Shown here piece after piece: positions 37,281 to 59,365 of a stretch of DNA of 64,000 nt. The notes under the pieces are model-generated. The model was not told the DNA's origin and made no database searches. It saw only the letters and a program-made list of their open reading frames with translations. The DNA is from Planctomycetota bacterium (GTDB lineage: Bacteria > Planctomycetota > PLA2 > JAEUHO01): the NCBI GenBank assembly GCA_965223505.1, contig CBDCWP010000013.1:96001-160000 (forward strand). Reading direction: 5' to 3'. Within the stretch, counting starts at the first letter, position 1. Each line of letters opens with the position of its first letter. A program made the position numbers and the translations under genes.

Positions 37281-37314
37281 GCTCAAAACGAGATAGACTC
37301 CTCTCATTTTGAGA
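37281..37314. promoter_or_regulatory. Tandem palindrome pair, putative bEBP enhancer (UAS)
   Basis: GCTCAAAACGAGA (37281) + TCTCATTTTGAGA (37302), 21-bp spacing. Confidence 0.7.
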
Positions 37315-37477
37315 GGAGTACTTCGGTTGAAAGCTCGACGTATGTCCTCCTCTCTCTCGAGATTAAAAAAGCTTAAGAGAAAGCGGCGCGCCTGTGGGAT
37401 GTTTCCAACAGACGTTGAGGCCCATCTCGCCCGCGCATTAGCCGGGGGCATTAATATACATGGGGATCTCGGCGTTT

Positions 37478-37493
37478 TGGCATGTTCTTTGCC
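37478..37493 (+). promoter_or_regulatory. sigma54 -24/-12 promoter (AI-2E)
   Basis: TGGCATGTTCTTTGCC. Confidence 0.75.
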
Positions 37494-37578
37494 TCGCAGC
37501 ACAGCCAAACGGCGCCATTGACGCCCATCATCACACAAGGGGCGCCTGAAGCTCCCCAGTACGCTTCGGAGGGAAAAG

Positions 37579-38673
37579 ATGCCCGACTTGTTCACCCAGG
37601 GGCTCCTACGGCTCGCCTCGATTTTCATTATTCTATGGGGCATCCGAGCTGCTCAGCCCATCGCCGCGCCTCTCATCTTTGCATTATTCTTGATGGGTGT
37701 TTGTTGGCCCCTCTATCGATGGGTTCAGCGTCTGGCGCCGCGAGTTGTGGCTGCGGCGATTGCCCTGCTCGTCTGTTTGATCGCGCTTGGAGGGATCGGC
37801 GGCGGTCTGTACTACAGCGGCGTTCAGATCGCGGGCGATTCCCAAAAGATGGCGCAACTGATCTCTTTGGAGGCCCTGCAACTGCGCTCCTTGGCCGAGG
37901 GGCTGGGGGTGCCGATTCCGCCCCCAGAGAAGGCCGCGTCTGCCGTCGGGACTTTTCTCAAGTACCTATCCTCGCAGGCGCTTTCAGCCAGCACAGGGCT
38001 TTTTCTGGCGCTCACTTTTTTGATGTTGGGTTTGCTCGAAGCGCCAGCCTTTCGCACGAAGCTCGTCGGCAATCGCGCCGATAGCGCTCTGCTTCACAGT
38101 CTGTCGGAAATCGCTTCAGATTTTCAGCGATATATCGCCGCCCGCACGTTTTTGGGGTTGTTGACCGGCCTCCTGAGCGGGCTCGGGGCCTGGGCCATTG
38201 GTCTCGACTATCCTTTTATCTGGGGTCTGACGAATTTTCTCCTCAACTATTTTCCAACCATTGGCTCGATTCTTGGCGTCATCCCATCCACGCTGTATGC
38301 GCTGGCCCAATCAGATGGCGGCGCAGGGTTGGCCCTGGCCGCGCTCGGCGTCATCGGCGGCGTCCAGCTCATCATGGGAAATTACATCGACCCGCTCGTG
38401 CAAGGGCGCGTCTTGTCGCTATCGCCTCTCATTGTGCTGTTATCAGTGGCGTTTTGGGGGTGGATGTGGGGTGTGGCGGGCGCGTTTATCGGCGTGCCGA
38501 TCACGATTGCGATCGTTTTGATCTGTCGACGTTTTGCGTCCACCCGGTGGATTGCCACGCTTCTGGCTGGGACCAACGATGACAACGCCACTCCGATTGT
38601 TTGCGATCTGCGCGTCACAAGGCGACAGCAAGAGGGCGATGTCCCGACATCAACAACGCTCGGCAATAAATAG
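37579..38673 (+). CDS. AI-2E family transporter
   Basis: LLNYFPTIGS, GNYIDP, LSPLIVLLSVAFWGWMWGVAGAFIGVP. Confidence 0.9.
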   Translation: MPDLFTQGLLRLASIFIILWGIRAAQPIAAPLIFALFLMGVCWPLYRWVQRLAPRVVAAAIALLVCLIALGGIGGGLYYSGVQIAGDSQKMAQLISLEALQLRSLAEGLGVPIPPPEKAASAVGTFLKYLSSQALSASTGLFLALTFLMLGLLEAPAFRTKLVGNRADSALLHSLSEIASDFQRYIAARTFLGLLTGLLSGLGAWAIGLDYPFIWGLTNFLLNYFPTIGSILGVIPSTLYALAQSDGGAGLALAALGVIGGVQLIMGNYIDPLVQGRVLSLSPLIVLLSVAFWGWMWGVAGAFIGVPITIAIVLICRRFASTRWIATLLAGTNDDNATPIVCDLRVTRRQQEGDVPTSTTLGNK

Positions 38674-40266
38674 AGAGGCGCAAGGCGAAGATGGGCCTTG
38701 GTGATAAACCAAGACAGCGTCCTCGATGTCCCGGTCAGCGACTGTAAACCGGTCGCGCTGTCTCAAGTATTCGCCCCAGGTTTCCACGATAAACGATTCG
38801 AGATAACGGCCAGTTTCAGCCGCATCAGCAAAAACGCCCCAGCGCAGGGCGCCGTCCCGGCGGCGTATCCTGCCGAGCTGACGGATGGCAAGAAAAAAAG
38901 CCTCACATTGATCTGGGTCAATCTGATAGTCGATGGTGACCAAAACCGGGCCTTTTTCATCATCGGGCTCTTCCTCTATGTCCGGCGTAGGCCAATGTCG
39001 GGAGGGGCTCGTGTCATAGTCGCTGCTGGTGACGAGTGGACAACGATGCGTCGCAGCCAGAGCAACCAGCGCGCCGCCCGCTGCGACCCACAGGGTTGCC
39101 CCAATGCCGATCCGGTCGGCCACCGCCCCCCAGAGGGCGCTGCCGCCGGCCATGCCCCCAAAAAACACGAGGATATAGGCGGCCAGGGCGCGGCCTCGCA
39201 CCCAGGTGGGCAAGGCCGCTTGGGCGCTGGCGCTGAACGACGTAAGCAAGATGAGCCAGGCGCTTCCGCCTAACAGCATGATCAGACAAAACAGGACTGA
39301 CGCCTTGACCAGCCCAGCGAGCGCGAGAACGAGGGCGAAGATCATGGTCGCTGTTGCAACGAGATGTTCCCGCGTGAAATGGGGTTGTAAACGCGGCAGG
39401 ACGAATGTGCTGAGGGACGCGCCAAGACCAAAGCAACCGAGCACGAGTCCATAGCCAGATGCGCCTTGCCCCAGGTGTTCGCGCACAACGAGCGGCAGCA
39501 TTGCCCAGAGGGCGCTGCCGCAGAGCATGAAGGCGCCGGCGCGCGCCATGACAGACCACATAGCCGGGGCGTGCCAAACGTAGCGGAGCCCAGCTTGCAT
39601 CGCGCCCCAAAAGTGTTCTGCCGGCAAGCGCGTTCGGCGTTGGGAACGCCGCCAGGTATAGAACACAACGATGACGCCCAAAAACGAGACGGCATTAAGT
39701 AGGAAGAGAACAGCCGGCCCCAATGCGGCCATGAGAAATCCGCCCAAAACGGGACCGAGCGCCCGCGCGACATTGACCGACGCCGTTTTGAGAGAAATGG
39801 CCCCTGACAGGTCTTCGCGCGGCACGAGTTCCGCCGTAACGGCGCGGCGAGCAGGCGAGTTGAAGGCCAGCCCAAGGCTCATCACCCCCGTTAAGCTCAG
39901 CAAGAGCCACGGGGTCATCACGCCGAGCCATACGGCGACGCCATAGCCCAGAGCGGTGAGACAGACCCAACTTTGCGTGATTAAGAGCAAGCGGCGTCGA
40001 TCGATCACGTCGGCCAACACGCCGGCCGGCAGCGCAAAGAGCACCATGGGGAGACTGGTCGCCACTTGCACCAGCGCCACCATGACAGGAGAAGGGGACA
40101 ACGTGGTCATCAGCCACGCCCCGCCGACGTCCTGCATCCAATTGCCAATATTGGATATGAAGGTTGCAATCCACAGCCACCGAAATACGGCGTGGCGCAG
40201 CGGACGCCAGGCGCTTGCCTGACGCTGCTCGTCTCCCTCGCCATGAGGCTTCGAACACGGCGCCAT
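38650..40266 (-). CDS. MFS transporter (MFS_3/transmembrane secretion effector) with C-terminal soluble domain
   Basis: FRWLWIATFISNIGNWMQ, GVLADVIDRRR, GPVLVTIDY, RRRDGALRWG; GGAGG RBS. Confidence 0.9.
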   Translation of the reverse strand: MAPCSKPHGEGDEQRQASAWRPLRHAVFRWLWIATFISNIGNWMQDVGGAWLMTTLSPSPVMVALVQVATSLPMVLFALPAGVLADVIDRRRLLLITQSWVCLTALGYGVAVWLGVMTPWLLLSLTGVMSLGLAFNSPARRAVTAELVPREDLSGAISLKTASVNVARALGPVLGGFLMAALGPAVLFLLNAVSFLGVIVVFYTWRRSQRRTRLPAEHFWGAMQAGLRYVWHAPAMWSVMARAGAFMLCGSALWAMLPLVVREHLGQGASGYGLVLGCFGLGASLSTFVLPRLQPHFTREHLVATATMIFALVLALAGLVKASVLFCLIMLLGGSAWLILLTSFSASAQAALPTWVRGRALAAYILVFFGGMAGGSALWGAVADRIGIGATLWVAAGGALVALAATHRCPLVTSSDYDTSPSRHWPTPDIEEEPDDEKGPVLVTIDYQIDPDQCEAFFLAIRQLGRIRRRDGALRWGVFADAAETGRYLESFIVETWGEYLRQRDRFTVADRDIEDAVLVYHQGPSSPCASLFIAERC

Positions 40267-40354
40267 GATTTCCTCCTTTGCAAGACTCCAGTAGCCAAGG
40301 GGAGCTATCCCATTTTGAGACAAGCCGCTCGTTACATGCCTGAGGCGGACCGGA

Positions 40355-40900
40355 ATGGCAGACCATTGGCGGGTGATTCACTTGCCGGAAACGCTGGTGC
40401 GGCTGTTGGGCCATGTCGCGAATTGGCATGAGGATTTTGCGGATCGTTGGTCCACCGGCGAGCATCGACGGGATCGCGACCAGTTTCTGGGCTGGATCGC
40501 CGAGCACCAACGGCGATACCCAATGCAACGCGTCGTGCTCTTAGGAGGCGACATCCATATCGGCTGTGTCCACGAGATCCGCTGGGCGCGGCAGGGACCT
40601 AAACTCTATCAGTTAATCTCAAGCGGCATTACGAACGATACGGGCGCGCTGACGCAATACCTCTCCACACTTATCATCCGCTTGAATCATGAGGCGAGCA
40701 CAGCCGATGGAGCGCTACGCGCCAAGGTGCGCTTGCTCAAAGGCGCGGGCCGACAACGCAGGAATCCCTATGGCGGCTTGAATGTCGGCGTCCTTGAAAT
40801 TGAGACCCCGACATCGGGAGACGCGCCAAACCTGCGCTTTTACCTTTACAGACACCGCGGAGAGGAGCCCGTCTGTGTCTACCGCTCAGTGCTGGTTTAA
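40355..40900 (+). pseudogene. C-terminal fragment of a PhoD-like metallophosphatase
   Basis: DFADRW, VVLLGGDIHIG, YQLISSGI, N.GVLEI motifs; N-terminal part and RBS absent. Confidence 0.6.
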
Positions 40901-40906
40901 CCATGA

Positions 40907-41268
40907 TCAGGAGAGTGACTCTGGCGCGCCATTGGGCTCCGGCTCTTCGGGTTGAGCCAAGATGGCGTTGGTGACCGCGCTGATCGCCACACTCCGTATC
41001 GCACCGAATAGACTGGTCTGCACGAAAGACAACAGAGGCGATTTCGAACTCGGCTGATCGGTTGTCTTTCGGGACGGTAATAGGCCTGACGCCATGAACC
41101 CGGCTAGGACGCCGGCGCCCACTGATGGCCAAGGATGCGCCTGTGTCCACGCCTGCACGTCGGCGGCCGTTTTCGCCGTCTCACGCATCTCGGCAAAGGT
41201 CTGCTGCATAGCTTGCTTTGCCTCCTCGGCTTGTCGCCGTAAGAACGCGGCTTCATCGCGCTCGTCAT
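40907..41268 (-). CDS. DUF883/DUF3618-like membrane-anchored stress protein (start uncertain)
   Basis: Helical region then WTQAHPWPSVGAGVLAGF; an ATGA overlap at 41268 is one base out of frame. Confidence 0.55.
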
Positions 41269-41753: not shown

Positions 41754-41810
41754 ATCTGACTCATTGCGTTAGTTGGTCGCTCTGGCATCGCCGCCAGCGG
41801 GCGTCTTCAA

Positions 41811-41841: not shown

Positions 41842-41858
41842 CGATGGCGACCCAACGG

Positions 41859-42610: not shown

Positions 42611-42627
42611 TGATATTCCTTTCACAT

Positions 42628-42937: not shown

Positions 42938-43021
42938 ATCTATTTTCCTCAAAAGTTGTCATACGCCATGCATGGCGTATAATCGTTATGTATGGCGAGC
43001 CCCATGTCCGTTATTGTGCGG

Positions 43022-43171
43022 TCACAATGCGCGACGTCCCTGTACGAGCCTGATGACGATCACGACAAGTGCGATTAACAGCAGGAGATGGAGAAGGCCG
43101 CCTAGGGTATAGGACGAGACCATCCCGAGTAACCACAAGATAAGCGCAATAATCACGATGGTCCATAACAT
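43022..43171 (-). CDS. lmo0937/DUF5670-like small membrane protein (49 aa)
   Basis: MLWTIVIIALILWLLGMVSSYTLGGLLHLLLLIALVVIVIRLVQGRR; AAGGAG RBS. Confidence 0.88.
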   Translation of the reverse strand: MLWTIVIIALILWLLGMVSSYTLGGLLHLLLLIALVVIVIRLVQGRRAL

Positions 43172-43284
43172 CGGCATTTCTCCTTTGCGAGGTCGTGTGG
43201 GCGAAACAGGACAATTCAACGTTTAGCCTACAAGGCTGCGCGCCTGCTCCCATGCCCAACGCAGGGTTTCAAACCTACTGAGTG

Positions 43285-43300
43285 AGCAAAAGGCGTGCCA
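43285..43300 (-). promoter_or_regulatory. sigma54 -24/-12 promoter
   Basis: TGGCACGCCTTTTGCT. Confidence 0.8.
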
Positions 43301-43410
43301 AAGTCTTAATACCTATATTCTAGAGCGTAGCCTCTAGGCGCTAACCTGGCATAAAGGTCGTCCAATGCGGTTTGCAGGTAGTGAGAATAACGAAGAATAT
43401 CGAATTCATC

Positions 43411-43444
43411 TCTCGTTTTGCAATCATACCCTCTCATTTTGAGA
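43411..43444. promoter_or_regulatory. Tandem palindrome pair, putative bEBP enhancer
   Basis: TCTCGTTTTGCAA (43411) + TCTCATTTTGAGA (43432), 21-bp spacing. Confidence 0.7.
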
Positions 43445-43687
43445 GAGTAATCGTCGACTGGTGTTGACGCGCCGATGGTCATGGTTGTTGCCGGATGACA
43501 ATCCGTTACCCAACCACGCTGGCGATATCGATAAGCAAGTCGCTCTCGATCCATCCGTCTCGCGCTTGTTCGATGCCGTCCGATATCGTTGTGGCGGCGG
43601 CGTGGGCATGGCGCTTGGCCAGGCGCTTGGGGCGCGCATTCTAGCGCGTCCGCGGCTCCGTCATGGCGTCATCTGTCGCGATGCCGT

Positions 43688-43703
43688 TGGTATATTTTTT
43701 GCT
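43688..43703 (+). promoter_or_regulatory. sigma54 -24/-12 promoter
   Basis: TGGTATATTTTTTGCT. Confidence 0.65.
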
Positions 43704-43967
43704 ATCTACCGAGATAAACCGTTATCCCTCGATCAACTCCAAGCTGAAAGGACGCCACTTATGCAGACCTCTCATCTAAGAGCGAGTGGCGCGGGCATGG
43801 CGCTGAGCGCCCCACCCAGATCCGTGTATCATCGTAATTTATGGGGTTGCAGGCGACCTTGCCCGTCGCACGTTGATCCCTGCGCTTTGCGCCCTTTACC
43901 GCTGCCAGAGCCTGTCCGCGCCATTCGCCGTTATTGGAGGGGCGAGGCGCTCAGATTGGGTTTGTGC

Positions 43968-44114
43968 CAAGCTTGGTCGATCGTCGATCCACTGATCGCC
44001 AACTGGGAAGCGTTGCCGCCTCCCGACTTGCCGAACTATGCGGCGGGCTCTTGGGGCCCAGAGGCGGCCAACTCGCTGCTTGAGCAAGATGGACGAACAT
44101 GGTATATGGCCTAA
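43968..44114 (+). pseudogene. zwf: C-terminal remnant of glucose-6-phosphate dehydrogenase
   Basis: AWSIVDPLIANWE...NYAAGSWGPEAANSLLEQDGRTW is the characteristic G6PDH C-terminus; the rest of the gene is absent. Confidence 0.8.
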
Positions 44115-44136
44115 GATGATGAGAGTGGAGCGTGTC

Positions 44137-45150
44137 ATGACATCCGAAGAAGCGCGAGAAGCGCGCGCGCGGGGCGGCGCCAATGCAATGGAATATTCCC
44201 TAACGCCTGAAAGTCCTCTGTTTATCGTCCTCAACGCCGGTTCGGGCAGGCGTGACGCCCAAGCCACGGAGGCCACCATCCGACGCGTGCTGGAACAAGC
44301 TGGCAGGCGTTACCACTTGGCCCTTGCCAGCCACCCCCGGCAGCTTCCTGCTCTCATCAAGCGCGCTGTCGAATCGGCGCAACAGCAACTGGGCGTCGTT
44401 GTCGCGGCCGGCGGCGACGGCACGCTCAATGCTGCCGCGCAGGCGGTGTTGGAGAGTGGGCGGCCCTTTGGGGTGCTGCCGCAGGGCACTTATAACTATT
44501 TTGGCCGCACTTATGGCATTCCTGAGGATACCGCCGAAGCGACGCGGGTATTGCTCGACGCGACCATTCGACCAGCGCAAGTGGGGTGGCTCAATGGGCG
44601 CCTGTTTCTCGTCAACGCTAGCCTGGGACTATACCCGCGTCTGTTTGAGGAACGCGAGGTCTACAAGCGCCAATTTGGCCGCAGCCGTTTTGTGTCCATA
44701 TGCGCGGGGATGATCACGTTATTGCGTCGGCATCGCCAGTTGGTATTGGACCTTGAGTGCGAAGGGCATCGCCGCACGATGCGCGCGCCGACGCTCGTGG
44801 CCGGGAACAATGCGCTGCAGCTCGAACAGATTGGCATCCCGCAAGCGCCTGCTGTCGAGCAAGGACAGCTCGTCGCCATCGCAGCGCGCTCCGTCGGCGC
44901 GCTAGCCCTGCTCGCTTTGTTGTACCGCGGCGCCTTGGGGCAAATTGGCGATGACGCCAATATTGAGAGCTTTGCGTTCGATAAGCTCACCGTACGCCCC
45001 CGGCGGCGACGGCGCGTTAAGGCGGCCATTGATGGCGAGGTCATTTGGCTGCGTACGCCTTTGGTGTTCGAGGTGGCGCCGCGTCCCTTGCCGCTATTGG
45101 TTCCGGCCCGCGCGCCGAGTGCTTCGCTTGCCGATTCGGGTGCGGCGTGA
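44137..45150 (+). CDS. Diacylglycerol kinase family lipid kinase
   Basis: LNAGSG, AAGGDGT, GVLPQGTYNYF, FLVNASLGLY, IDGE. Confidence 0.9.
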   Translation: MTSEEAREARARGGANAMEYSLTPESPLFIVLNAGSGRRDAQATEATIRRVLEQAGRRYHLALASHPRQLPALIKRAVESAQQQLGVVVAAGGDGTLNAAAQAVLESGRPFGVLPQGTYNYFGRTYGIPEDTAEATRVLLDATIRPAQVGWLNGRLFLVNASLGLYPRLFEEREVYKRQFGRSRFVSICAGMITLLRRHRQLVLDLECEGHRRTMRAPTLVAGNNALQLEQIGIPQAPAVEQGQLVAIAARSVGALALLALLYRGALGQIGDDANIESFAFDKLTVRPRRRRRVKAAIDGEVIWLRTPLVFEVAPRPLPLLVPARAPSASLADSGAA

Positions 45151-45623: not shown

Positions 45624-45639
45624 TGCAACTTTTATGCCA
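45624..45639 (-). promoter_or_regulatory. sigma54 -24/-12 promoter
   Basis: TGGCATAAAAGTTGCA. Confidence 0.75.
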
Positions 45640-45664: not shown

Positions 45665-46675
45665 TCATGGAGCGCTAGATGGCTGGCGCAACGCGTTGAC
45701 AAACGCCAGTAGCGGGTCGATGCGCGTCACGTAGGTAAAGGCGGCGGCAGGATACATGGTGGCCGCGACTAGGCCAACCAGCACAGGTTGTTTTCCTTGT
45801 AGAGCCAATACGGGAGAGCCAGAATCCCCTGGCTGCACATCGACATCGGTCGTAAACATATTCACATTGAGTTTCGTCTGGGTCATGCTGTTGACGGCTA
45901 CCGGGGCCTTTGCCAAGACTTTGCCCACGGCGAGGCGACGGGAGCCCGTATCCTGGCGCTGGGCGTTGCGGACGGGCACGATGGCGGCCACGCAGTCCCC
46001 CGCTTTCAAGCCGCCGATAGGTTTGGCCGGATCGCCTACGCCATACGATAGCGCCGTGGGATAACGCAGCGGCTCTAAAGCGACGTGATCCGGCGTTTGC
46101 ACCAAAGCCAAATCGTATCGTTCATTCTTGTGGACAATGGCGGCTGCAATGCCGTTGGAGCCTCGATCACGATGCACCGTGAGGGTCATTTGCGAGACGC
46201 GCAACGGCGTAGTGGTCACGACGTCCTGCGACGTGACGCGCACATCAACGCTGTCGGGCGTCAAGGCGTGCGCGACTGTAGCCAGTAGATGGGGGGTCAA
46301 AACCACGGCGCTAGATTCCTGATGAAACGAGGCTTCCACCACCTCTCGCGGCGTGTGAGACGCTACCCCGAAAATCGCTTCAAGAGAAGGCTTCCCGACG
46401 ATTTCAGGCCGAGGGGCGCGCGTCGCCAATGCCGTCCCTTGAAGTGATAGCCGCGGCGCCGCAGTCCACGGCGACACAGACTGAGACTGGCTTCCAGCGT
46501 CGATTCCCCACATTTTATTTAGCGCCGGGTCTTGGGCGAACCCATCACACGCTTTCACAAATCCCTGTGGCGCCGCCTGCGCGCCCCCCCCTACACTCAC
46601 GACGATGAACACGGACAATACCGCTGACGCCATACCTAGGAGGCGGTCCCCCCAATAGCGGTTGCATGGGTTCAT
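45665..46675 (-). CDS. Trypsin-like serine protease, exported
   Basis: ATVAH (His), YDLALV (Asp), PGDSGSPV (Ser); N-terminal hydrophobic segment. Confidence 0.8.
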   Translation of the reverse strand: MNPCNRYWGDRLLGMASAVLSVFIVVSVGGGAQAAPQGFVKACDGFAQDPALNKMWGIDAGSQSQSVSPWTAAPRLSLQGTALATRAPRPEIVGKPSLEAIFGVASHTPREVVEASFHQESSAVVLTPHLLATVAHALTPDSVDVRVTSQDVVTTTPLRVSQMTLTVHRDRGSNGIAAAIVHKNERYDLALVQTPDHVALEPLRYPTALSYGVGDPAKPIGGLKAGDCVAAIVPVRNAQRQDTGSRRLAVGKVLAKAPVAVNSMTQTKLNVNMFTTDVDVQPGDSGSPVLALQGKQPVLVGLVAATMYPAAAFTYVTRIDPLLAFVNALRQPSSAP

Positions 46676-47152
46676 CGCCTGCTTCGCAACCCCCCATTGA
46701 GCCCGGTATTTTAATGAGTTATCAGAAACGCTCACAATCGTGCTTCCGGAGCAATAGATTCTCATGGTAGGAAAGACGCAGCCTTCCGCCTCAAGCCCTT
46801 CATGCAAGCCTAACCTTGCGATGCGGCGCAAGTCAATGCCTAAGCACTCGTGTCATTTTGGGGGTTCGGTCGGCGCTGCAACACGCTCGCCGCCGGGTCC
46901 AAAACGCAGATGCGTAGCAATGATCCGGGGGAGGGGAGGGGAGACGTGCAAAACTCCAGACATATTCATTAATAGAGGAAGTGTTGAAAATGGACACGCT
47001 GGTCGAGGGGCGCTTCGAAAGCTGTCATATACAAACTGCAAGCGGCAAGGAAGGCAGAGAGAGTCAGGCCATGTAGCGGCGAAACAACTGAGCTTAGCAA
47101 CATGGCTCAACCCGACATGAAAGCAACTCTATCAGTGACTACAACTTGCTTA

Positions 47153-47489: not shown

Positions 47490-47505
47490 AGCAATAATAA
47501 TGCCA
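47490..47505 (-). promoter_or_regulatory. sigma54 -24/-12 promoter
   Basis: TGGCATTATTATTGCT. Confidence 0.72.
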
Positions 47506-47621: not shown

Positions 47622-47637
47622 TGGCATAAATTTTGCG
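47622..47637 (+). promoter_or_regulatory. sigma54 -24/-12 promoter (PRC-barrel gene)
   Basis: TGGCATAAATTTTGCG. Confidence 0.72.
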
Positions 47638-47788
47638 CCTCCTAGTTTAAAAATGTTTGAGTCGTTGCATATCTTTCGGTTTAGATATCAATTCGCATGT
47701 AAACATAATGGAGGGATCGACATCGGGTCCGCCGCTTATCTCGATCTTCAATAAGCGGTGGAGCGTCAACCATCCTATGGGTGACGTC

Positions 47789-47822
47789 TCTCAAAACAAA
47801 ACTCAGCTCTCTCATTATGAGA
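47789..47822. promoter_or_regulatory. Tandem palindrome pair, putative bEBP enhancer
   Basis: TCTCAAAACAAAA (47789) + TCTCATTATGAGA (47810), 21-bp spacing. Confidence 0.65.
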
Positions 47823-47865
47823 GGGTTGAGTTGGGATCGACGTTTTCTGATCTGAAAGGAAAACC

Positions 47866-48594
47866 ATGCTGCGAAGTATTAAAGCCTTACACAGCTACGC
47901 CATCGAGGCGACGGATGGAGACCTCGGCGTGGTCTACGCGTTTTATTTTGATGATCTGTCCTGGACGATCCGCTACGTGGTCGTGGACACTGGGGCCTGG
48001 TTGCCCGGGCGCCGCGTTTTGATCTCGCCGACTGTCGTCGGGGAGCCGCGCTGGGAGATGCGGCAACTGCCGGTGAATCTCACCCAGGAGCAGGTTAAAA
48101 ATAGTCCGGATATGGATACGGACCAACCCGTTTCGCGCCAACATCAAATGGCGTTGCACGACTATTACGCCTGGCCGATGTACTGGACAGTGGCGCCCAT
48201 CGGCCCAGGGGCGGTGGCGATGCCGCCGGAGTTGGCGGAGGAGTACGCCTCGGAAACCGGCGATCCCCACCTGCGCAGCACCCAGGAAGTGATCGACTAT
48301 TACATCCATGCGAGCGATGGCGATCTTGGCCATGTGGAGGATTTCATTGTCGACGATGACGACTGGACGATTCGCTATATGGTCGTTGATACGCGCAACT
48401 GGCTGCCTGGCAAAAAAGTGCTGGTCGCGCCGGAATGGATTACGGAGGTGAATTGGGGCGAGTCAAAAGTGTATGTCAATCTGACCCAAGACGCGATCAA
48501 AGACAGCCCGGAATATGATCCGACCGAAACGGTGAATCGCTGGTATGAAGAACGCCTTTACGATTTTTACGGCCGGCCCAAGTATTGGAGCTAA
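47866..48594 (+). CDS. Double PRC-barrel domain protein
   Basis: Two repeats of ATDGDLG.V..F..DD..WTIRY.VVDT..WLPG++VL. Confidence 0.92.
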   Translation: MLRSIKALHSYAIEATDGDLGVVYAFYFDDLSWTIRYVVVDTGAWLPGRRVLISPTVVGEPRWEMRQLPVNLTQEQVKNSPDMDTDQPVSRQHQMALHDYYAWPMYWTVAPIGPGAVAMPPELAEEYASETGDPHLRSTQEVIDYYIHASDGDLGHVEDFIVDDDDWTIRYMVVDTRNWLPGKKVLVAPEWITEVNWGESKVYVNLTQDAIKDSPEYDPTETVNRWYEERLYDFYGRPKYWS

Positions 48595-50111: not shown

Positions 50112-50127
50112 GGCAAAATCCGTGCCA
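50112..50127 (-). promoter_or_regulatory. sigma54 -24/-12 promoter (SSADH)
   Basis: TGGCACGGATTTTGCC. Confidence 0.8.
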
Positions 50128-50198
50128 TGTCATGCGATGCCTGCCGTGCAATAACGCATCCCATCTCGGGGCGGCCTTGTCGCCTGTCGGCGGCGCGA

Positions 50199-50214
50199 TG
50201 GCATAAGGCTTGCA
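50199..50214 (+). promoter_or_regulatory. sigma54 -24/-12 promoter (transglutaminase operon)
   Basis: TGGCATAAGGCTTGCA. Confidence 0.8.
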
Positions 50215-54666: not shown

Positions 54667-55954
54667 ATGAACGATAATCGCGCCACCATCGTCGCTTCTG
54701 ATTATTTAGAGCAAAACGCCGAGGCGCTTGTCACCAGTTGGATTGAGTGGGTCAGAGGGCGAGTGCAGACGACCGTTATCAATGCGTTGCCGCACCGCGC
54801 GCTTCGAAATCACGTGCCGCCCGTGTTGCGGAGCTTGGCGAAATTTCTGCGCAATCCAATCGAACTCGCGCGCCAGGACCTCTGCAACCATTTGCGCCTA
54901 CACGGCCAGATACGCCGCGATCAAGGCTATTCGCTCGAAGAGGTCTTAGCTGAGTTTGAAGGCCTCGCCGATGTGGTGACGCGCGGCGTGAGCCAAGCGA
55001 TTCAGGAACATGCGAGCGACGCCGAATCTCACGATGTGCTCGAAGTCGCCAACCGGCTGGCGTCAGGCCTGCGCTCTGTCAGTTACATTGCAATGGGAAC
55101 CTATATTAGAGCCGATCAAGACAGAGAGCAATTGATGGCTGCAAGCCTTGAAGAGTTTTCTCGCGCCATCGCCCATGAGCTACGCAATCCTCTCAACACG
55201 CTAACTTTAAACCTGCAAGTCCTTCAAGAAGAATTGGCTGATCACGAAGACCTGGTGCACTTATATCGAAGCGATGGATGTGGCTGTTAATCGGTCGACG
55301 TATCTGCTCGACACTATTCGCATCTTGACGATTGCCGAAAGCGCCCGAGCAGGACAACGCTTAGTCACTTTAGAAGAAGCTCTCAATCGCATTCAGAAGG
55401 AGTTCAATGACGAAATTTTTCATTTAGGGCTGGAGTTTCGAGTCGAGTCGCCTCTCCCCGAGGTGAGCATGGAGGCAACCGTCCTGTATCTCGTGTTAGT
55501 CAATCTTGTTGGAAACTCGATCAAGTATTGTGATTGCGACAAAAGCGAGAGATGGGTTGCCGTTAGCGCCACAATCATTGAGGAGGAAAATGATTCGGGT
55601 TTCTGTGAAATCCAAGTTGAAGATAATGGCCTTGGCATTGGAGAGGAATATCTGTCACGGGTTTTCCAAAAAGGGTTTCGAGCCCACCCAGAGCACGCCC
55701 AGGGCACTGGGTCGGGGCTTTTCATCGTCCAACAAGCGCTCAATTCCCGAGGGGCAAGCATCTCTATCGAAAGCCATGAAGGCGAAGGCACAGCGGTAAA
55801 GGTGCGACTGCGTTGTCTCCACCCGGAAGCCGCGGTCTTGTCTGCCGATCAATTCCGTGTCGAAAGCCTCATGGGAGAGTTTATCTGGAATGAGCTAACC
55901 GCTGCCCCGGGGCTTCCGGATAATGAGAGACAAACAGAGGCCGAAGAGAGTTAG
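54667..55954 (+). CDS. Histidine kinase with RsbRD_N-like sensor, HisKA and HATPase_c; frameshift near 55261
   Basis: HGQIRRDQGYSLEEVLAEF, IAHELRNPL, NLVGNSIKY, VEDNGLGI, GTGSGL; the ORFs join on removing one T. Confidence 0.85.
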
Positions 55955-56016
55955 CGTCGGCGTCAAACGTGGATCAGAGACGGCGACTCAGCTGTCAACC
56001 GTCATCGTTGACGTGG

Positions 56017-56319
56017 TTAACGGAGTTGTTTTTGAAAAGTCTTTTGCACGATTTCCTGGACGCCGCTCGAAAGACGACCGCCCAACAAATGTCCTAAGAC
56101 AGGTATATCTCCCGTTACATGCACTAAGACGTCGTCCACTGACATCTCAATCCAAAAGCCTCTGCCGTCAAGTCGCACTTCGCTTTGGTCAGACGACCAC
56201 ACCGTTTGTCGAATCAGCATCCCAAGGAGATCGTGGACTTGCTGGACAACCGACTTCAGATCCCCACGCGCTTCTTCTAGAGTCTTATCGTGTTTTAACG
56301 ATAGGGCAATCAGAGACAT
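56017..56319 (-). CDS. Putative polyhydroxyalkanoic-acid-system (PHA_gran_rgn-like) protein
   Basis: LKHDKTLEEAR, W, VDDVLVHVTGDIP pattern. Confidence 0.65.
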   Translation of the reverse strand: MSLIALSLKHDKTLEEARGDLKSVVQQVHDLLGMLIRQTVWSSDQSEVRLDGRGFWIEMSVDDVLVHVTGDIPVLGHLLGGRLSSGVQEIVQKTFQKQLR

Positions 56320-56488
56320 ATTTCTTGCCTTTCTATCCTATGATAAGCGATATACATAATCTCATGAGACAAAGCCTCATTTTATCAAAGTTCTCGTGCA
56401 AAAACCATGCGCGCCAATGAGGCGGTGTAGGCCATTTTCACCCCTCGGCTCTATTTGCCCTTTCTTACAATCCGGTGCAAACAAAATA

Positions 56489-56504
56489 AGGCATAGAAAT
56501 TGCA
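56489..56504 (+). promoter_or_regulatory. sigma54 -24/-12 promoter
   Basis: AGGCATAGAAATTGCA. Confidence 0.7.
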
Positions 56505-56674
56505 GATATTCATTATATGATTTCTGCTCTATGCATGAATCATTTTGTATAGAGGTGAGTGGTGAATTCATATTGGCCGCAATTGCATGATGTGTTGCTC
56601 GTAGTGCGCCAAGTAGAAAATCCATCTACCCACCTAGTGGTGAAATCTAAACTTATACGTTAGGAGAAAGATCA

Positions 56675-56755
56675 ATGAGAGGTGGAACGCTTACGACAGT
56701 CGTTCTCATATTGGTTGGTATCGCTGCGGTCATTTTCATTGCCCGAGCGATCTAA
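56675..56755 (+). CDS. 26-aa single-TM small protein
   Basis: TAGGAG RBS; MRGGTLTTVVLILVGIAAVIFIARAI*; downstream of the sigma54 motif at 56489. Confidence 0.65.
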   Translation: MRGGTLTTVVLILVGIAAVIFIARAI

Positions 56756-56905
56756 ACAGAGTTTGTGACTCGCACAACATCCGGGCGGCGCATTGATGTT
56801 GCCTGGGATGTGATCTGAGACGCATAAGTTTTGGCAATGCGTCTCAGAATAAATCTCTCAAAAACCACCACGACATATACCGCTCGTCGGAACCAACGAG
56901 CTGCC

Positions 56906-57751
56906 CTATGCTGCAATACGCCGGTAGCGCGCCTGCGAGAAGCAATAAACGCCATAGGCGACAAGACCGAGCGCCACGATCCCTAGGAGCCACGGACCAT
57001 AAGGCTGGCGGGCCAGCGTGTCGAGCGCCCCGGAGAGGCCTTTGGCCTGACTCGGATCCGCCTGAAGGGCCGCGATTATAAAAAAACCGCCAATGATCGA
57101 AAACGTGACGCCGCGCGCCGAAAGGCCGAATTGGCCGATACGCTTGGCCCAGCGACGCTCCGTGGCCGACATCTCACCGGACTTGTAACGCTCCATGAAT
57201 TTTGCTTTGTAGGCTCGGTAGAAGTGATAGATGCCCACGCCGATCACAATTGCGCCGACAGCACCAACGAGCCACAGACCAAAGGGCTGGGACATGAGCT
57301 TCGCGGTCAATTCCTGCTTGGAGCTGTCGCCGCTACCGCCGCTACTGCCGCCGCTTATAGCCATGCGGCCAGCAAGAAACGCAAGGCCCGCATAGGTAAC
57401 GCCACTGACGGCATAGCCGATGCGAGCGATAATCCCCTTGGCGTCGGAGCCCTTGCCTTCCGGATCTTTAAAAGCCTGAACAAACCGCCAGATGACATAG
57501 CCAATGAGCCCCAGCGCCGTCAATGCAACCAGAATGCGGCCGAAGGGTTGTTGGGCAATCGTCTCAATCGCGCCTTTTGAACCCTCTGTGGAACCGCCCG
57601 CGCCAACGGCCGTCATCACGGCAAGCACGCCGACGATAACATAGACCACGCCTTTGGTGGCATAGCCAAACCGCGCCAAGGTTTCCACCTTATCGCCCGC
57701 AGCTTGAGTGGCCTGCTGCACCGCTCCGCTTGTAGAAGATACGTCCCTCAT
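56906..57751 (-). CDS. DUF1206 family membrane protein
   Basis: Three repeats: LARFGYATKGVVY, QPFG, SARGV.F, GL.GALDTL..QPYG. Confidence 0.9.
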   Translation of the reverse strand: MRDVSSTSGAVQQATQAAGDKVETLARFGYATKGVVYVIVGVLAVMTAVGAGGSTEGSKGAIETIAQQPFGRILVALTALGLIGYVIWRFVQAFKDPEGKGSDAKGIIARIGYAVSGVTYAGLAFLAGRMAISGGSSGGSGDSSKQELTAKLMSQPFGLWLVGAVGAIVIGVGIYHFYRAYKAKFMERYKSGEMSATERRWAKRIGQFGLSARGVTFSIIGGFFIIAALQADPSQAKGLSGALDTLARQPYGPWLLGIVALGLVAYGVYCFSQARYRRIAA

Positions 57752-57820
57752 GATTAAATCTCCATCATGTTTCCCCGGAATCCATGCCAAACAACTTTTA
57801 AACTGATGATGCTTGTATGT

Positions 57821-57836
57821 CGCAAATATTGTGCCA
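57821..57836 (-). promoter_or_regulatory. sigma54 -24/-12 promoter (DUF1206)
   Basis: TGGCACAATATTTGCG. Confidence 0.78.
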
Positions 57837-57906
57837 CGCTGCAGAACCGCAACTAATATTTGTGGAGCCTGCGTGATATTCTGATGAAATTGCTGCAATT
57901 GATGTA

Positions 57907-57940
57907 TGCCATTTTGAAACATCTTTGCATCATTTTGAGA
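57907..57940. promoter_or_regulatory. Tandem palindrome pair, putative bEBP enhancer
   Basis: TGCCATTTTGAAA (57907) + CATCATTTTGAGA (57928), 21-bp spacing. Confidence 0.6.
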
Positions 57941-58004
57941 GAGTCGCACGGGAAAATACATCTTATGACGCCGCTTTTATTCTCCACTTTTTAGGCTGGG
58001 CGTT

Positions 58005-58020
58005 TGGTATGTTTTTTGCT
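58005..58020 (+). promoter_or_regulatory. sigma54 -24/-12 promoter (metallothionein)
   Basis: TGGTATGTTTTTTGCT. Confidence 0.68.
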
Positions 58021-58180
58021 TTGTATCGCATCCTGAGGCTGGTTGTGTATTTATACCTTACCGTCCGCAGGCCCCTAAAGGAAATTAGCGTCAAGGCTTC
58101 ATCTCGTGACCTGTCAAGCAGTGATCTGATGAGCTGGTCTGCATGATGGTCTATTTCACTCAAACAACAAGGAAATCAAG

Positions 58181-58327
58181 ATGAAATGCGCTTGCCAACG
58201 TCAATGTATGTGCGAGGTAACCCCTGCTCAGAGTCTTGAACGAAACGGACACCTGTATTGCAGTGAAGCTTGCGCCAATGGCCACACCCGAGGAGAAGGT
58301 TGCGGTCACAGCGACTGTCGTTGTTAG
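58181..58327 (+). CDS. smtA: Bacterial metallothionein (SmtA/BmtA family), 48 aa
   Basis: MKCACQRQCMCEVTPAQSLERNGHLYCSEACANGHTRGEGCGHSDCRC*; KCAC..C.C, YCSEACA.GH and GCGH..C.C match SmtA; AAGGA RBS. Below the ORF-track size cutoff. Confidence 0.92.
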   Translation: MKCACQRQCMCEVTPAQSLERNGHLYCSEACANGHTRGEGCGHSDCRC

Positions 58328-58593
58328 GGCGGATGAACAACTTTATGTCTAGCTGTCCGCCACCGCCTTCCAGGCGGTGGCGGACGATATCGTTGTCGAT
58401 TCGCCGGACAACACGAGAGAATGTCCACATGCTAGCTCGATACCGACAGGCGCGGCTTTATCACCTCTGAGGCCATCTCTGATGTGCGTGTAGAGATGAC
58501 CAAAGCATCTTCAGGCCGCTAGGGGTCCAGGGCTAGAGGGGAGGCGGCGGTTCAATCCTAGTCGCCATAAAACCTTTTTGAAATGGAAAACAT

Positions 58594-59004
58594 ATGACTC
58601 AACCATGGCAGTCATCTCGCCCGGAAAAATGGCGGGACACCAAGTCAGTTCACGAAGTTAGCTCAAGATTAAACCGAGTTCGCAAGTTGACCCATCTACT
58701 CGATTCGAGCTTTGGTATACCAGGGACATCAGTTCGCTTTGGGCTCGATAGCCTTTTGGGTCTGGTCCCTGGCGTTGGCGACATCGTCGGCGCCCTATTG
58801 TCAGGCTATATTGTCTATGAGGCGCTGCGGCTTCGCGCCCCCAAGCGCCTTCTAGCGCGCATGATCGGCAACATTGCCATTGATACGGCAATCGGCGCGA
58901 TACCGATTGCCGGCGACCTATTCGACATTGTGTGGAAAGCCAACAGAAGGAATCTGAGGCTATTAAATTGGCATGTCAAGCAGAACGCAAACGACATTGA
59001 CTGA
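58594..59004 (+). CDS. DUF4112 family membrane protein
   Basis: LLDSSFGIPGTSVRFGLDSLLGLVPGVGD, GDLFDIVWKANRRN. Confidence 0.92.
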   Translation: MTQPWQSSRPEKWRDTKSVHEVSSRLNRVRKLTHLLDSSFGIPGTSVRFGLDSLLGLVPGVGDIVGALLSGYIVYEALRLRAPKRLLARMIGNIAIDTAIGAIPIAGDLFDIVWKANRRNLRLLNWHVKQNANDID

Positions 59005-59006
59005 TA

Positions 59007-59180
59007 TCAATATTTCAAGATGACATACAAAGCGTGGACAATTCCTGGAATAAAGCCAAATAGAGTAAGCAAGATATTGAGCCAAAAGTGACCTTTGAAG
59101 CCTACTTCAAAAAAAACGCCTAAGGGAGGCAACAAAATCGCAAACACGATTTTGATCGGGTCGGTAATGGTAACAGCCAT
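59007..59180 (-). CDS. yqaE: YqaE/Pmp3 family membrane proteolipid (57 aa)
   Basis: AILLPPLGVFFEVGFKGHFWLNILLTLFGFIPGIVHALYVI; AGGAG RBS. Not in the ORF track. Confidence 0.92.
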   Translation of the reverse strand: MAVTITDPIKIVFAILLPPLGVFFEVGFKGHFWLNILLTLFGFIPGIVHALYVILKY

Positions 59181-59255
59181 GCGCATCTCCTGTACTCAAG
59201 ATAAGGGAATAGTAAAGGCTTTACAGATTTACTCCGTCTTGCCTTATGATCAAGG

Positions 59256-59271
59256 AGCAAATCTTATGCCA
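59256..59271 (-). promoter_or_regulatory. sigma54 -24/-12 promoter (yqaE)
   Basis: TGGCATAAGATTTGCT. Confidence 0.8.
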
Positions 59272-59331
59272 AGATGTCGCAAGTCGGAGGCAATCCGCCA
59301 AAGGCTGACTGCTTAAATCCCTCAGCGACCC

Positions 59332-59365
59332 TCTCAAAATAAAAACGAAGTCTCTCAAATTAATA
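59332..59365. promoter_or_regulatory. Tandem half-conserved palindrome pair, putative bEBP enhancer
   Basis: TCTCAAAATAAAA (59332) + TCTCAAATTAATA (59353), 21-bp spacing. Confidence 0.55.

Follow-up and report, generated by a model that had tools for sequence, protein, structure and literature searches.

Results

The DNA analyzed here (the window, 64,000 nucleotides) is the 96-160 kb segment of contig C13 in a 5.15-Mb Planctomycetota genome assembly of metagenome origin. Its setting is a low-GC, foreign-looking island of stress genes, approximately 65-75 kb long, with 28 strict sigma-54 promoter matches in approximately 63 kb. Strict -24/-12 matches number 35 on C13, with those 28 at 133-197 kb, and 68 on the other 43 contigs together. 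The GC content of C13 shifts at approximately 65-70 kb, and this may be a chimeric contig. Features in the window are listed below; bits are scores from a 19-bp weight matrix that was built from 11 strong dyads, with the weak partners left out of training, and promoter distances are from the inferred transcription start.

37211..37226, minus strand: sigma-54 -24/-12 promoter AGGCATAAAAATTGCT of an AsmA-family gene (33528-37148); dyads at about -87/-108
37280..37315, no strand: tandem module 1, weak dyad 37280-37294 (15.0 bits) and strong dyad CTCTCATTTTGAGAG 37301-37315 (25.6 bits), 21 bp centre to centre
37478..37493, plus strand: sigma-54 promoter TGGCATGTTCTTTGCC of an AI-2E-family transporter gene (37579-38673); dyads at about -217/-196
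40307..40321, no strand: lone dyad-like site ATCCCATTTTGAGAC, 15.2 bits, with the probable start codon of an MFS_3 gene (ATG, 40267) about 40 bp downstream
43285..43300, minus strand: sigma-54 promoter TGGCACGCCTTTTGCT of a small ORF (43011-43259), then DUF883-like, BON and holin-X-like genes; strong dyad at about -164
43410..43445, no strand: tandem module 2, weak dyad 43410-43424 (6.6 bits) and strong dyad CTCTCATTTTGAGAG 43431-43445 (26.2 bits)
43688..43703, plus strand: sigma-54 promoter TGGTATATTTTTTGCT upstream of a diacylglycerol-kinase-like gene (44038-45150); strong dyad at about -276
45624..45639, minus strand: sigma-54 promoter TGGCATAAAAGTTGCA, no recognisable dyad
47490..47505, minus strand: sigma-54 promoter TGGCATTATTATTGCT of an ORF without assignment and a trypsin-like protease gene (45665-46831)
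47622..47637, plus strand: sigma-54 promoter TGGCATAAATTTTGCG of a PRC-barrel gene (47866-48594), conserved in the metagenome relative L105
47788..47823, no strand: tandem module 3 in the PRC-barrel leader, weak dyad 47788-47802 (12.6 bits) and strong dyad CTCTCATTATGAGAG 47809-47823 (25.4 bits)
50112..50214, no strand: back-to-back sigma-54 promoters 50127(-), aldehyde dehydrogenase gene, and 50199(+), transglutaminase-like, MscS/BON, DUF2252 and kinase genes; 72 bp apart, no recognisable dyad
56489..56504, plus strand: sigma-54 promoter-like site AGGCATAGAAATTGCA, no recognisable dyad
57821..57836, minus strand: sigma-54 promoter TGGCACAATATTTGCG of a DUF1206 gene; dyad at about -124
57906..57941, no strand: tandem module 4, very weak partner 57906-57920 (4.8 bits) and dyad GCATCATTTTGAGAG 57927-57941 (18.5 bits)
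58005..58020, plus strand: sigma-54 promoter TGGTATGTTTTTTGCT of a prokaryotic metallothionein gene (58181-58327) and a DUF4112 gene (58594-59004); dyad at about -97
59256..59271, minus strand: sigma-54 promoter TGGCATAAGATTTGCT of a Pmp3-family small membrane protein gene (59007-59186); dyads at about -93/-114
59331..59366, no strand: tandem module 5, CTCTCAAAATAAAAA 59331-59345 (14.0 bits) and CTCTCAAATTAATAG 59352-59366 (21.4 bits), just the left half-sites being conserved
59450..59465, plus strand: sigma-54 promoter TGGCATGGAACTTGCT of an AI-2E transporter gene (59571-60704) and cytochrome oxidase subunit II/I genes; dyads at about -138/-117

The listed DUF1206 ORF (56906-57961) reaches too far at the 5' side.

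All 11 sites of the preliminary description, five pairs and the single site at 40308, were recovered at their coordinates. It had given the motif as a tandem TCTCA-N3-TGAGA palindrome, which is exact for 37302, 43432 and 47810 and inexact for the other eight. Three exact copies in the window compare with 0.04 expected, a count of at least three being reached in 0 of 100 shuffles, and the 34-bp tandem pattern with 2-3 mismatches gave three matches against 0.00 expected. Right-hand dyads of the five modules scored 18.5 to 26.2 bits and left-hand partners 4.8 to 15.0 bits, so each "pair" comprises one good dyad and one degenerate partner and not two palindromes; the unit is in fact a single strong dyad, CTCTCA-WWW-TGAGAG, with a degenerate partner 21 bp off. 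The partner sites at 4.8 and 6.6 bits barely exceed background. The exact 21-bp spacing held up: among 42 matches of at least 6 bits at C13 125-200 kb there were 11 pairs 5-80 bp apart, seven at exactly 21 bp and one at 20 bp, compared with 21-bp pairs in 0 of 200 local dinucleotide shuffles. Tandem modules total nine, five inside the window and four past it, and across them mean pairwise identity was 75% for the strong dyad, 52% for the weak dyad, 25.5% for the spacer and 24.6-24.9% for the flanks. Because only the two 15-bp blocks are conserved, the modules are not a repeat element, and the dispersed-repeat family named beforehand as the finding that would speak against an enhancer is not what they form. 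An alternative explanation could be a leader hairpin or terminator acting at the RNA level, or else a relic left by a mobile element or dispersed repeat. The strong dyad is able to fold a 6-bp hairpin, the 47809 copy would be transcribed if promoter 47622 is active, and at least seven pattern matches in metagenomes resemble terminator hairpins, but in the window four of five modules are flanked by divergent promoters and would be transcribed from neither, the weak partner is not self-complementary, spacer and flanks are at random identity (about 25%), the genome's copies have no T-runs after them, and an Rfam search of window positions 36000-60500 (E up to 0.1) found nothing. We regard this explanation as highly improbable.

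The dyad is restricted to the island. All five exact 13-mers in the genome are on C13, and matrix matches of at least 14 bits number 16 at C13 125-200 kb, 0 in the remainder of C13 and one in the other 4.89 Mb. Eight matches of at least 12 bits fell outside the training set, whereas 200 local shuffles averaged 1.27 and never gave more than 5. Off the island, 0 of 8 matches of at least 12 bits had a sigma-54 promoter within 500 bp, in keeping with an association of dyad and sigma-54 promoter that is particular to the island.

For 22 strict or near-strict promoters, dyad centres range from -87 to -364 relative to the inferred start, the PRC-barrel module excepted, and 14 of 20 C13 dyad matches with at most three mismatches are within 350 bp of a strict promoter. 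In the four intergenic pairs the distance to the nearest -24 element measured 62-138 bp, in line with the approximately 60-140 bp estimated previously, and the proposal of enhancers common to both directions agrees with the position of dyad modules shared by divergent promoter pairs. The third module does lie in the PRC-barrel leader, between sigma-54 promoter 47622 and the ATG at 47866, at +147/+168 from promoter 47622(+) and -316/-337 from promoter 47505(-). Enhancers are not typically found in a transcribed leader, and this position would fit a roadblock or an RNA hairpin as well. There was no strict sigma-54 promoter near the single site at 40307..40321, just a one-off TGGCAGACCATTGGC at 40364(+) by our own reading, and the role of this site is uncertain. 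Six good promoters, 45639(-), 50127(-), 50199(+) and 56489(+) in the window and 171196(-) and 171253(+) on C13, had no dyad scoring 7 bits or more between -420 and +260, and a search for a second motif common to the six found none. Co-activation of the whole cluster is thus in keeping with most sigma-54 promoters, which adjoin a dyad, but because of these six the idea of one activator for all of it is only partly right. The resemblance of the dyads to sigma-54 enhancers is supported by where they lie, by their symmetry and by their tandem spacing on one face of the helix.

In the close metagenome relatives L105 and L151 (75-93% amino-acid identity), promoter and tandem dyad form conserved blocks. 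The module 2 block is identical in L151 and module 3 is kept in L105, the sequence around the blocks in the PRC-barrel leader being only about half identical by eye. The tandem dyad with a strict sigma-54 promoter also occurs on unrelated metagenome contigs, with DUF1206 and beta/gamma-crystallin genes (L142), a sigma-70-family factor gene (L148), a CsbD-like gene (L155 and L169), a short-chain dehydrogenase gene (L118, L121, L124, L156 and L173, with TPM-domain genes next in L124), or SRPBCC and glyoxalase genes (L115). A strict sigma-54 promoter lay within 500 bp at 13 of 86 pattern-matching metagenome loci. The dyad is conserved in both orthologous and non-orthologous sigma-54 promoter regions. 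At approximately 48 metagenome loci the same dyad core, in 21-bp tandem, overlaps the sigma-70-like promoter in front of a gene with a nucleotidyltransferase domain, and thus the dyad sequence is not exclusive to sigma-54 activators. These loci raise an explanation that we consider unlikely, that the dyads are operators of some other transcription factor, a repressor or co-regulator and possibly an unannotated small island protein, on sigma-54 or independent sigma-70 promoters. The leader module would suit a repressor roadblock, and several island ORFs have no Pfam match. Against this explanation, a homologue of the nucleotidyltransferase-domain protein is absent from the genome (tblastn, E up to 0.01), the dyads are approximately 90-280 bp from -24 elements without overlap, which is the geometry of an enhancer and not of an operator, and in 65 island ORFs compared with Pfam (33 + 32) DNA-binding domains occurred only in two REC-AAA+-HTH_8 activators and one sigma-70-family factor.

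A profile search listed 23 strong PF00158 matches genome-wide, 20 off C13 and two on the island. The three on C13, at 39.7, 166.3 and 197.2 kb, are all outside 96-160 kb, as anticipated by the suggestion that the activator is not encoded in the window. A single bEBP had been proposed; instead there are two paralogous candidates, at C13 165863-167221 and 196746-198101, on the same island but 6 and 37 kb outside the window. Both are NtrC-type response regulators (REC, AAA+ with GAFTGA, Fis-type HTH), 66% identical, with near-identical HTH (QLAIAPATLYRKLKEYQ helices in both) and intact GAFTGA and Walker A. The 196.7-kb activator has a 24.4-bit dyad approximately 81 bp upstream of its ATG. The 165.9-kb activator is downstream of a CsbD-like gene, and a tandem dyad stands at -106/-126 from the sigma-54 promoter (167962-) of the CsbD-like gene. 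An AtoS-like kinase gene is part of the divergent operon. Both activator genes appear to be autoregulated. The activator subfamily includes at least 119 other clusters in metagenomes, 67-91% identical, with two organism-named clusters among the matches listed, both Candidatus Tectomicrobia; the HTH is strongly conserved across clusters, which fits a motif kept across organisms. None of the metagenome contigs with dyad and sigma-54 promoter encodes the activator, so the link between regulator and motif is one of co-location in a single genome.

Discussion

We consider it likely that the dyad, as a rule accompanied by a weaker copy two helical turns (21 bp) off, is the enhancer (UAS) of a sigma-54 regulon of the island, bound by its two paralogous NtrC-type activators. 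It is also conceivable, but quite unlikely, that the dyads are enhancers for a sigma-54 activator whose gene lies outside the island. Only two of the 23 strong PF00158 matches are on the island, and the island link between activator and motif lacks cross-genome support, but the good dyads all fall within the island and a dyad is present in the own upstream region of both island activators. Across 400 other genomes of the phylum, moreover, the exact dyad was as frequent as the controls, and 0 of 40 close relatives had it, so that its cognate regulator would be expected to travel with the island.

If the island activators are responsible, one or both would bind the dyads. Island-encoded histidine kinases would phosphorylate the activator, with a dimer on the strong dyad and a second recruited cooperatively to the weak dyad on the same DNA face, and the two bound dimers may nucleate an active AAA+ ring. 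Through DNA looping the ring could reach sigma-54 holoenzyme at a promoter on either side and drive open complex formation, and one module could thereby serve two divergent promoters. The PRC-barrel module would either act from downstream of its promoter or serve the opposite promoter approximately 330 bp away. A dyad upstream of both activator genes would provide positive feedback.

Related response-regulator activators are known from the NtrC enhancer of glnAp2 in enteric bacteria and from AtoC and ZraR sites, including the zraP-zraSR divergent promoters. In this class, tandem dyad-symmetric sites lie on the same helical face approximately 100-150 bp upstream of a -24/-12 promoter, and one enhancer is able to serve divergent promoters. 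The island activators share the REC-AAA+-Fis-type HTH architecture, with AtoC, NtrC and ZraR as best NCBIfam matches, but neither reaches any of the named equivalog cut-offs (the AtoC score, for instance, is 466.6 bits with a cut-off of 714, and the NtrC score 438.8 with one of 558.6). The island half-site sequence is different and undescribed, and its spacing is 21 bp whereas that of NtrC sites is about three turns.

A comparable arrangement occurs with PexR of Myxococcus xanthus, a sigma-54 activator of oxidative-stress genes including catalase. In that report, tandem interrupted palindromes (CACCG-n6-CGGTG, three perfect and two pseudo repeats) lie upstream of the sigma-54 promoter, EMSA backed binding, and PexR has an N-terminal GAF domain (PMC12754779). 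Compared with PexR, the island similarly has tandem interrupted palindromes upstream of sigma-54 promoters, but its activators are of phospho-receiver type, its dyad is CTCTCA-W3-TGAGAG in pairs, and its regulon is far larger. Paralogous sigma-54 activators of a single genome that work on common promoters are described for HrpR/HrpS (PMC3105312), RedR1/RedR2 (PMC10084136) and VnfA/AnfA (PMC9542535); in comparison with these, interaction of the island paralogues or sharing of sites between them is suggested only by the near-identical HTH.

Literature searches found no description of the motif. The sites are ordinary in kind, resembling sigma-54 enhancers, and it is the motif and the regulon that are undescribed. 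That regulon would comprise stress and envelope genes, as opposed to the nitrogen, acetoacetate or zinc functions of NtrC, AtoC and ZraR.

Results

All 11 sites of the preliminary description were found in the window where it had placed them, and its rendering of them as TCTCA-N3-TGAGA palindromes holds exactly for three (37302, 43432 and 47810) and inexactly for the rest. Three exact copies compare with 0.04 expected in the window and were reached in none of 100 shuffles; a 34-bp double pattern was matched there at two to three mismatches only. Alignment resolves the unit into a strong 15-bp dyad, CTCTCA-WWW-TGAGAG, with a degenerate copy 21 bp before it (centre to centre) in which the left arm TCTC and the A/T run are mostly kept. 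Dyad symmetry over 15 bp is of a size fitting an HTH dimer. A symmetric 19-bp weight matrix was built from 11 strong dyads on contig CBDCWP010000013.1 (C13; G000:C13:96001-160000 is the window, so that window coordinate plus 96000 gives the C13 coordinate), with the weak partners left out of training. Its information is concentrated in both arms, and in the window it scores the right-hand members of pairs at 18.5-26.2 bits, the left-hand members at 4.8-15.0 bits and the lone site at 40308 at 15.2 bits. The consensus for IHF is WATCAANNNNTTR, and the dyad arms, judged by eye, do not fit it.

Spacing was as regular as first described. Among 42 matches of at least 6 bits on the island, the low-GC stress-gene stretch of C13, there were 11 pairs 5-80 bp apart, seven of them at exactly 21 bp and one at 20 bp, that is, at whole helical turns. 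Pairs at 21 bp did not arise in 200 shuffles preserving local (500-bp) dinucleotide content; elsewhere in the genome there are three close pairs, with spacings other than 21 bp. Because the weak partners were absent from training, this spacing signal does not derive from the matrix. In eight of nine modules (C13 133-186 kb) the right-hand dyad on the plus strand is the better one, whichever genes flank it, the exception being 177473/177494; this strand bias is statistically marginal.

The five exact 13-mers in the genome are all on C13 (133302, 139432, 143810, 174177 and 198182), and matrix matches of at least 14 bits number 16 in C13 125-200 kb, none on the remainder of C13 and one in the other 4.89 Mb. 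Even untrained island matches of at least 12 bits are in excess (eight, where the 200 shuffles averaged 1.27 and never exceeded 5), and the eight matches off the island at that threshold all lack a sigma-54 promoter in the 500 bp to either side.

The island stands apart in composition. The assembly (44 contigs, 5,154,780 bp) has mostly 67-70% GC per contig, with 61.3% for C13 as a whole and 58.0% for the window; about the first 65 kb of C13 lie at 65-70%, and from about 70 kb to the end (267 kb) it runs at 52-64%, with a minimum at 125-200 kb. GC drops at 65-70 kb and stays low for about 200 kb; this part of C13 is a foreign island of very large size, or else the contig is a chimera of the metagenome assembly. 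C13 yielded no ordinary tRNA gene; the one tRNA-like gene reported by ARAGORN, at window 6042-6132 (C13 102042-102132, minus strand), has a four-base anticodon (catc) and was given no definite type, and may be a false call or else a frameshift-suppressor-like tRNA. Strict -24/-12 matches number 35 on C13 (13.1 per 100 kb), 28 of them within 133-197 kb, and 68 on the other 43 contigs combined (about 1.4 per 100 kb), and divergent pairs are common among the C13 sites. The gene content is of stress, envelope and dormancy type:

Genes of the island
Window, behind sigma-54 promoters: AsmA-family; two AI-2E transporters; DUF883-like; BON; holin-X-like; diacylglycerol-kinase-like; PRC-barrel; trypsin-like protease; aldehyde dehydrogenase; transglutaminase-like; MscS channel with BON domain; DUF2252; DUF1206; prokaryotic metallothionein; DUF4112; Pmp3-family proteolipid; cytochrome oxidase subunits
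Past the window: two PRC-barrel, CsbD, Usp, catalase, another MscS, two BrkB-family, DUF3618, DUF533, ion-channel-domain protein, sigma-70-family factor (512 aa)
Past the window, signalling: AtoS-like histidine kinase, GAF hybrid kinase, PP2C phosphatase, lone receiver

Two of these genes fell below the 60-aa ORF cut-off and so were missed at first, a 48-aa prokaryotic metallothionein (window 58181-58327; PF02069, 64.7 bits) and a 59-aa Pmp3-family proteolipid (59007-59186; PF01679, 75 bits), each directly behind a dyad-served sigma-54 promoter. There were also some irregular reading frames in the window. A histidine kinase at 54667-55954 appears divided between two overlapping ORFs, RsbRD_N with a truncated HisKA (54667-55290) and HATPase_c (55274-55954), the cause being a frameshift, decay to a pseudogene or an error of assembly. 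The ORF at 43461-44114, whose final 47 or so residues match the glucose-6-phosphate dehydrogenase C-terminal domain, looks like a gene remnant and extends over both the sigma-54 promoter at 43688 and the beginning of the kinase-like gene.

The dyads keep company with the promoters. Enhancers of sigma-54 promoters (-24/-12, GG-N10-GC) are typically placed about 80-200 bp upstream and in any case within a few hundred bp. For 14 of the 20 C13 matches to the 15-mer at up to three mismatches, a strict promoter is no more than 350 bp away, and with a relaxed promoter score and a start assumed 26 bp past the T of TGG, the dyads are centred at -87 to -364 from the inferred starts of 22 promoters, the exceptions being one module at +147/+168 and one site at +55.

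Dyad positions relative to inferred starts
Window 37226(-) / 37478(+): -87/-108 and -217/-196
Window 43300(-) / 43688(+): -164 and -276
Window 57836(-) / 58005(+): -124 and -97
Window 59271(-) / 59450(+): -93/-114 and -138/-117
C13 164496(-): -119 and -364
C13 167962(-) / 168161(+): -106/-126 and -145/-125
C13 174011(-) / 174302(+): -177/-198 and -166/-145
C13 177556(+), catalase: -109/-88
C13 185504(-) / 185703(+): -117/-138 and -134/-113
C13 187561(+), sigma-70-family factor: -162
C13 196230(-): -258 (and +55)

Four of the five window modules thus lie between divergent sigma-54 promoters, and the fifth (47788-47823) in the leader of the PRC-barrel gene, at +147/+168 from promoter 47622(+), both as originally proposed; relative to the opposite promoter 47505(-), which stands 117 bp from 47622, this leader module is at -316/-337. 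For six good promoters, namely 45639(-), 50127(-)/50199(+) and 56489(+) in the window and C13 171196(-)/171253(+), the region between -420 and +260 contains no dyad reaching 7 bits, and a search for another motif common to them (9-mers, up to one mismatch) gave nothing convincing. Two dyad-less promoter pairs stand back to back, at window 50112-50214 (72 bp apart) and C13 171181-171268 (57 bp apart). By eye there was no obvious helical phasing of dyad-promoter distances.

Could the dyads be an RNA hairpin or a repeat element instead? Over nine tandem modules, mean pairwise identity is 75% in the strong dyad and 52% in the weak dyad, versus 25.5% in the 6-bp spacer and 24.6-24.9% in the 60-bp flanks. 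Dyads conserved amid a random spacer and flanks are the signature of two protein-sized recognition blocks rather than of a repeat element, so that the dispersed repeat family raised by the preliminary description as a counter-explanation is not what the modules resemble, nor is a miniature mobile element. Rfam covariance models gave no match in window 36000-60500 at E up to 0.1, and with four modules in five between divergent promoters, a hairpin or repeat origin is very improbable.

Candidates for the binding protein lie past the window end. Matches to the sigma-54-interaction domain occur on C13 at 39.7, 166.3 and 197.2 kb only, bearing out the expectation that the activator is not encoded in the window, and the latter two belong to paralogous genes:

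C13 165863-167221, minus strand: activator 1, 452 aa, REC - AAA+ - AAA-lid - HTH_8
C13 196746-198101, minus strand: activator 2, 451 aa, REC - AAA+ - AAA-lid - HTH_8

Both have the NtrC-type response-regulator layout (PF00072, PF00158, PF25601 and PF02954), with GAFTGA and Walker A (GESGTGKE) intact; they are 66% identical (295/450), and the recognition helix, ...QLAIAPATLYRKLKEYQ..., is identical in the two. Their closest PDB structures are NtrC-family activators, and the best named models for both are AtoC (466.6 bits, cut-off 714), NtrC (438.8, cut-off 558.6) and ZraR (433.6, cut-off 760), under curated NCBIfam cut-offs. Neither is assignable to a named equivalog, since every NCBIfam score (NtrC, AtoC, ZraR, NtrX, LuxO, GlrR, FlbD) is below its cut-off. 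The idea of one enhancer-binding protein (bEBP) for the whole cluster survives in that most promoters are dyad-served; it does not survive in its simple form, there being two candidate binders and six promoters without a dyad. The genome has one sigma-54 gene (on contig C37) and 23 strong sigma-54-interaction-domain matches, three of them on C13. That a regulator encoded elsewhere in the genome binds the dyads we regard as distinctly improbable. In a Pfam scan of 65 island ORFs (33 + 32), the only DNA-binding domains were those of the two activators and the sigma-70-family factor.

The two activators themselves are set among dyads. A 24.4-bit dyad lies about 81 bp 5' of the ATG of the 196.7-kb activator, and the 165.9-kb activator lies 3' of a CsbD gene and a small membrane ORF, behind promoter 167962(-), whose tandem dyad is common to a divergent operon with the AtoS-like kinase. 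Promoter 196230(-), with its dyad at -258, is followed by VWA, PP2C, kinase-like and GAF-hybrid-kinase genes. Dyads upstream of both activator genes are a layout that suggests feedback on them.

Relatives of the activators form at least 119 other clusters at 67-91% identity, almost all metagenomic and several of them on contigs of 50-265 kb, with the HTH strongly conserved across them and Candidatus Tectomicrobia as the sole two organism labels. The best 80 related loci in genome contigs among the matches listed were at most 49% identical, with no tandem dyad and two stray matches at up to two mismatches; true orthologues were probably missed. The exact 15-mer was found in none of 40 relatives, in eight of 400 other genomes of the phylum (one copy each; reversed control in six genomes) and in none of 121 genomes from the phylum of a Rokubacteria-labelled locus. 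By these results the regulon was not found in the genomes searched, and the exact dyad is not characteristic of the host lineage.

A tandem-pattern scan of metagenome contigs gave 86 loci (L-numbers below), mostly unrelated uses; the automatic classes (37 'A', 7 'C', 42 'other') were imperfect and the rows were re-read by eye. A strict sigma-54 promoter lies within 500 bp at 13 of the 86. Contigs more distant from the island have the module ahead of stress genes that are homologous or similar to its own.

Metagenome loci with a module before identifiable genes
L142: DUF1206 (62% identical) and beta/gamma-crystallin genes
L148: sigma-70-family factor gene (45% identical)
L155, L169: CsbD gene (67-72% identical)
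L118, L121, L124, L156, L173: short-chain dehydrogenase, then TPM-domain genes in L124
L114, L172: short-chain dehydrogenase group, loci cut by contig ends
L115: SRPBCC and glyoxalase genes

Two further loci, L105 and L151, are closely related to the island, at 75-93% amino-acid identity. L151 keeps the 35-bp tandem block without change; the PRC-barrel leader of L105 agrees, by eye, at only about half of its positions, with the promoter and both dyads standing out as conserved and changes restricted to the A/T core and spacer. Conservation of the dyad in orthologous promoter regions amid diverging DNA is thus apparent from these alignments. L142 (1250-2014) is an independent repeat of the leader layout, with promoters 1250(-) and 1408(+) 158 bp apart and a tandem dyad at 1566-1600, about 160 bp 3' of the plus promoter and just before the beta/gamma-crystallin gene (ORF start 1643). 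None of the metagenome contigs bearing the dyad with a sigma-54 promoter encodes the activator, and the link between regulator and motif therefore rests on co-location in one genome.

At about 48 of the 86 loci (e.g. L102:5960-6673, L089, L097, L103, L143) the tandem dyad lies over a sigma-70-like promoter, TTGAC...TACAAT, in the sequence GCTCTCAAAATG.GTAC-AATT-GCTCTCATTATGAGAGC, and overlaps the start of a nucleotidyltransferase-domain gene; an ATG within the second dyad appears to start this gene (Polbeta domain) as a leaderless one. The element looks like an autoregulated operator without link to sigma-54. The existence of such an operator family, and the module placed in a leader, would be in keeping with the island dyads being operators of a transcription factor that is not an activator, but island distances are of enhancer type and the host genome has no homologue of the nucleotidyltransferase-domain protein, and we consider this explanation unlikely. 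Terminator-like hairpins account for at least seven of the 86 loci; in four (L098:995-2372, L125, L165, L112) a hairpin with the CTCTCA-W3-TGAGAG core comes directly after the gene for a 38-42% identical sigma-54 activator on low-GC contigs, which is probably a coincidence within one gene family.

Discussion

The sites, their geometry, their restriction to the island, their conservation and the domain structure of the activators are solid as observations, and to read the dyads as enhancers is plausible. For NtrC-type activators there is an established model of dimer binding, AAA+ ring formation and DNA looping. By analogy, phosphorylated dimers would occupy the strong and weak dyads on the same face of the DNA and assemble an AAA+ ring, which would loop to sigma-54 holoenzyme on either side, so that one module could serve two divergent promoters. 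Where the promoters are too close (117-158 bp), the module would lie to one side of both, within the leader of one of the genes. The sites are probably common to both paralogues, and paralogues sharing sites would integrate two sensory inputs. A second regulatory tier is suggested by the sigma-70-family factor, whose gene follows a promoter with a dyad.

In kind the island layout is the textbook sigma-54 enhancer arrangement, and would work like the classic enhancers of NtrC, AtoC and ZraR. Paralogous activator pairs are already known from HrpR/HrpS, RedR1/RedR2 and VnfA/AnfA. PexR (PMC12754779) likewise has tandem interrupted palindromes, in its case CACCG-n6-CGGTG, upstream of the sigma-54 promoter of oxidative-stress genes. 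Our search of the literature gave no description of the dyad motif, the activator subfamily or a sigma-54 regulon with this gene set.

A wider reading, which we offer tentatively as possible and short of an even chance, is that the dyad serves as the cis-code of a sigma-54 'general stress or dormancy' regulon that is horizontally mobile and has gone unrecognised. Such a regulon would be run by a distinct NtrC-type subfamily, with HTH GNR..A.R.L.I.PATLYRK.KEYQ, frequent among uncultured bacteria of soil and sediment, and would turn on dozens of stress genes, replacing a system of sigma-B, sigma-S or EcfG type. Its genes would include CsbD, catalase, Usp, BON, PRC-barrel, DUF883, Pmp3, metallothionein, MscS and a second-tier sigma-70-family factor; its enhancers would be bidirectional, with leader enhancers in at least two independent cases (PRC-barrel here and the crystallin gene of L142); and the entire package would have moved as one island into the planctomycete.

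If the enhancer reading is right, the island provides a binding motif and a regulon map that takes in at least 11 enhancer modules and some 22 promoters. In metagenomes the activator subfamily is abundant (119 or more other clusters at 67% identity and above), and the motif is short and sharp enough to be used to mine metagenomes for more regulon members. It would follow that sigma-54 and two-component signalling can control a large set of classic general-stress genes, and that such stress genes can cross phyla together with their regulators.
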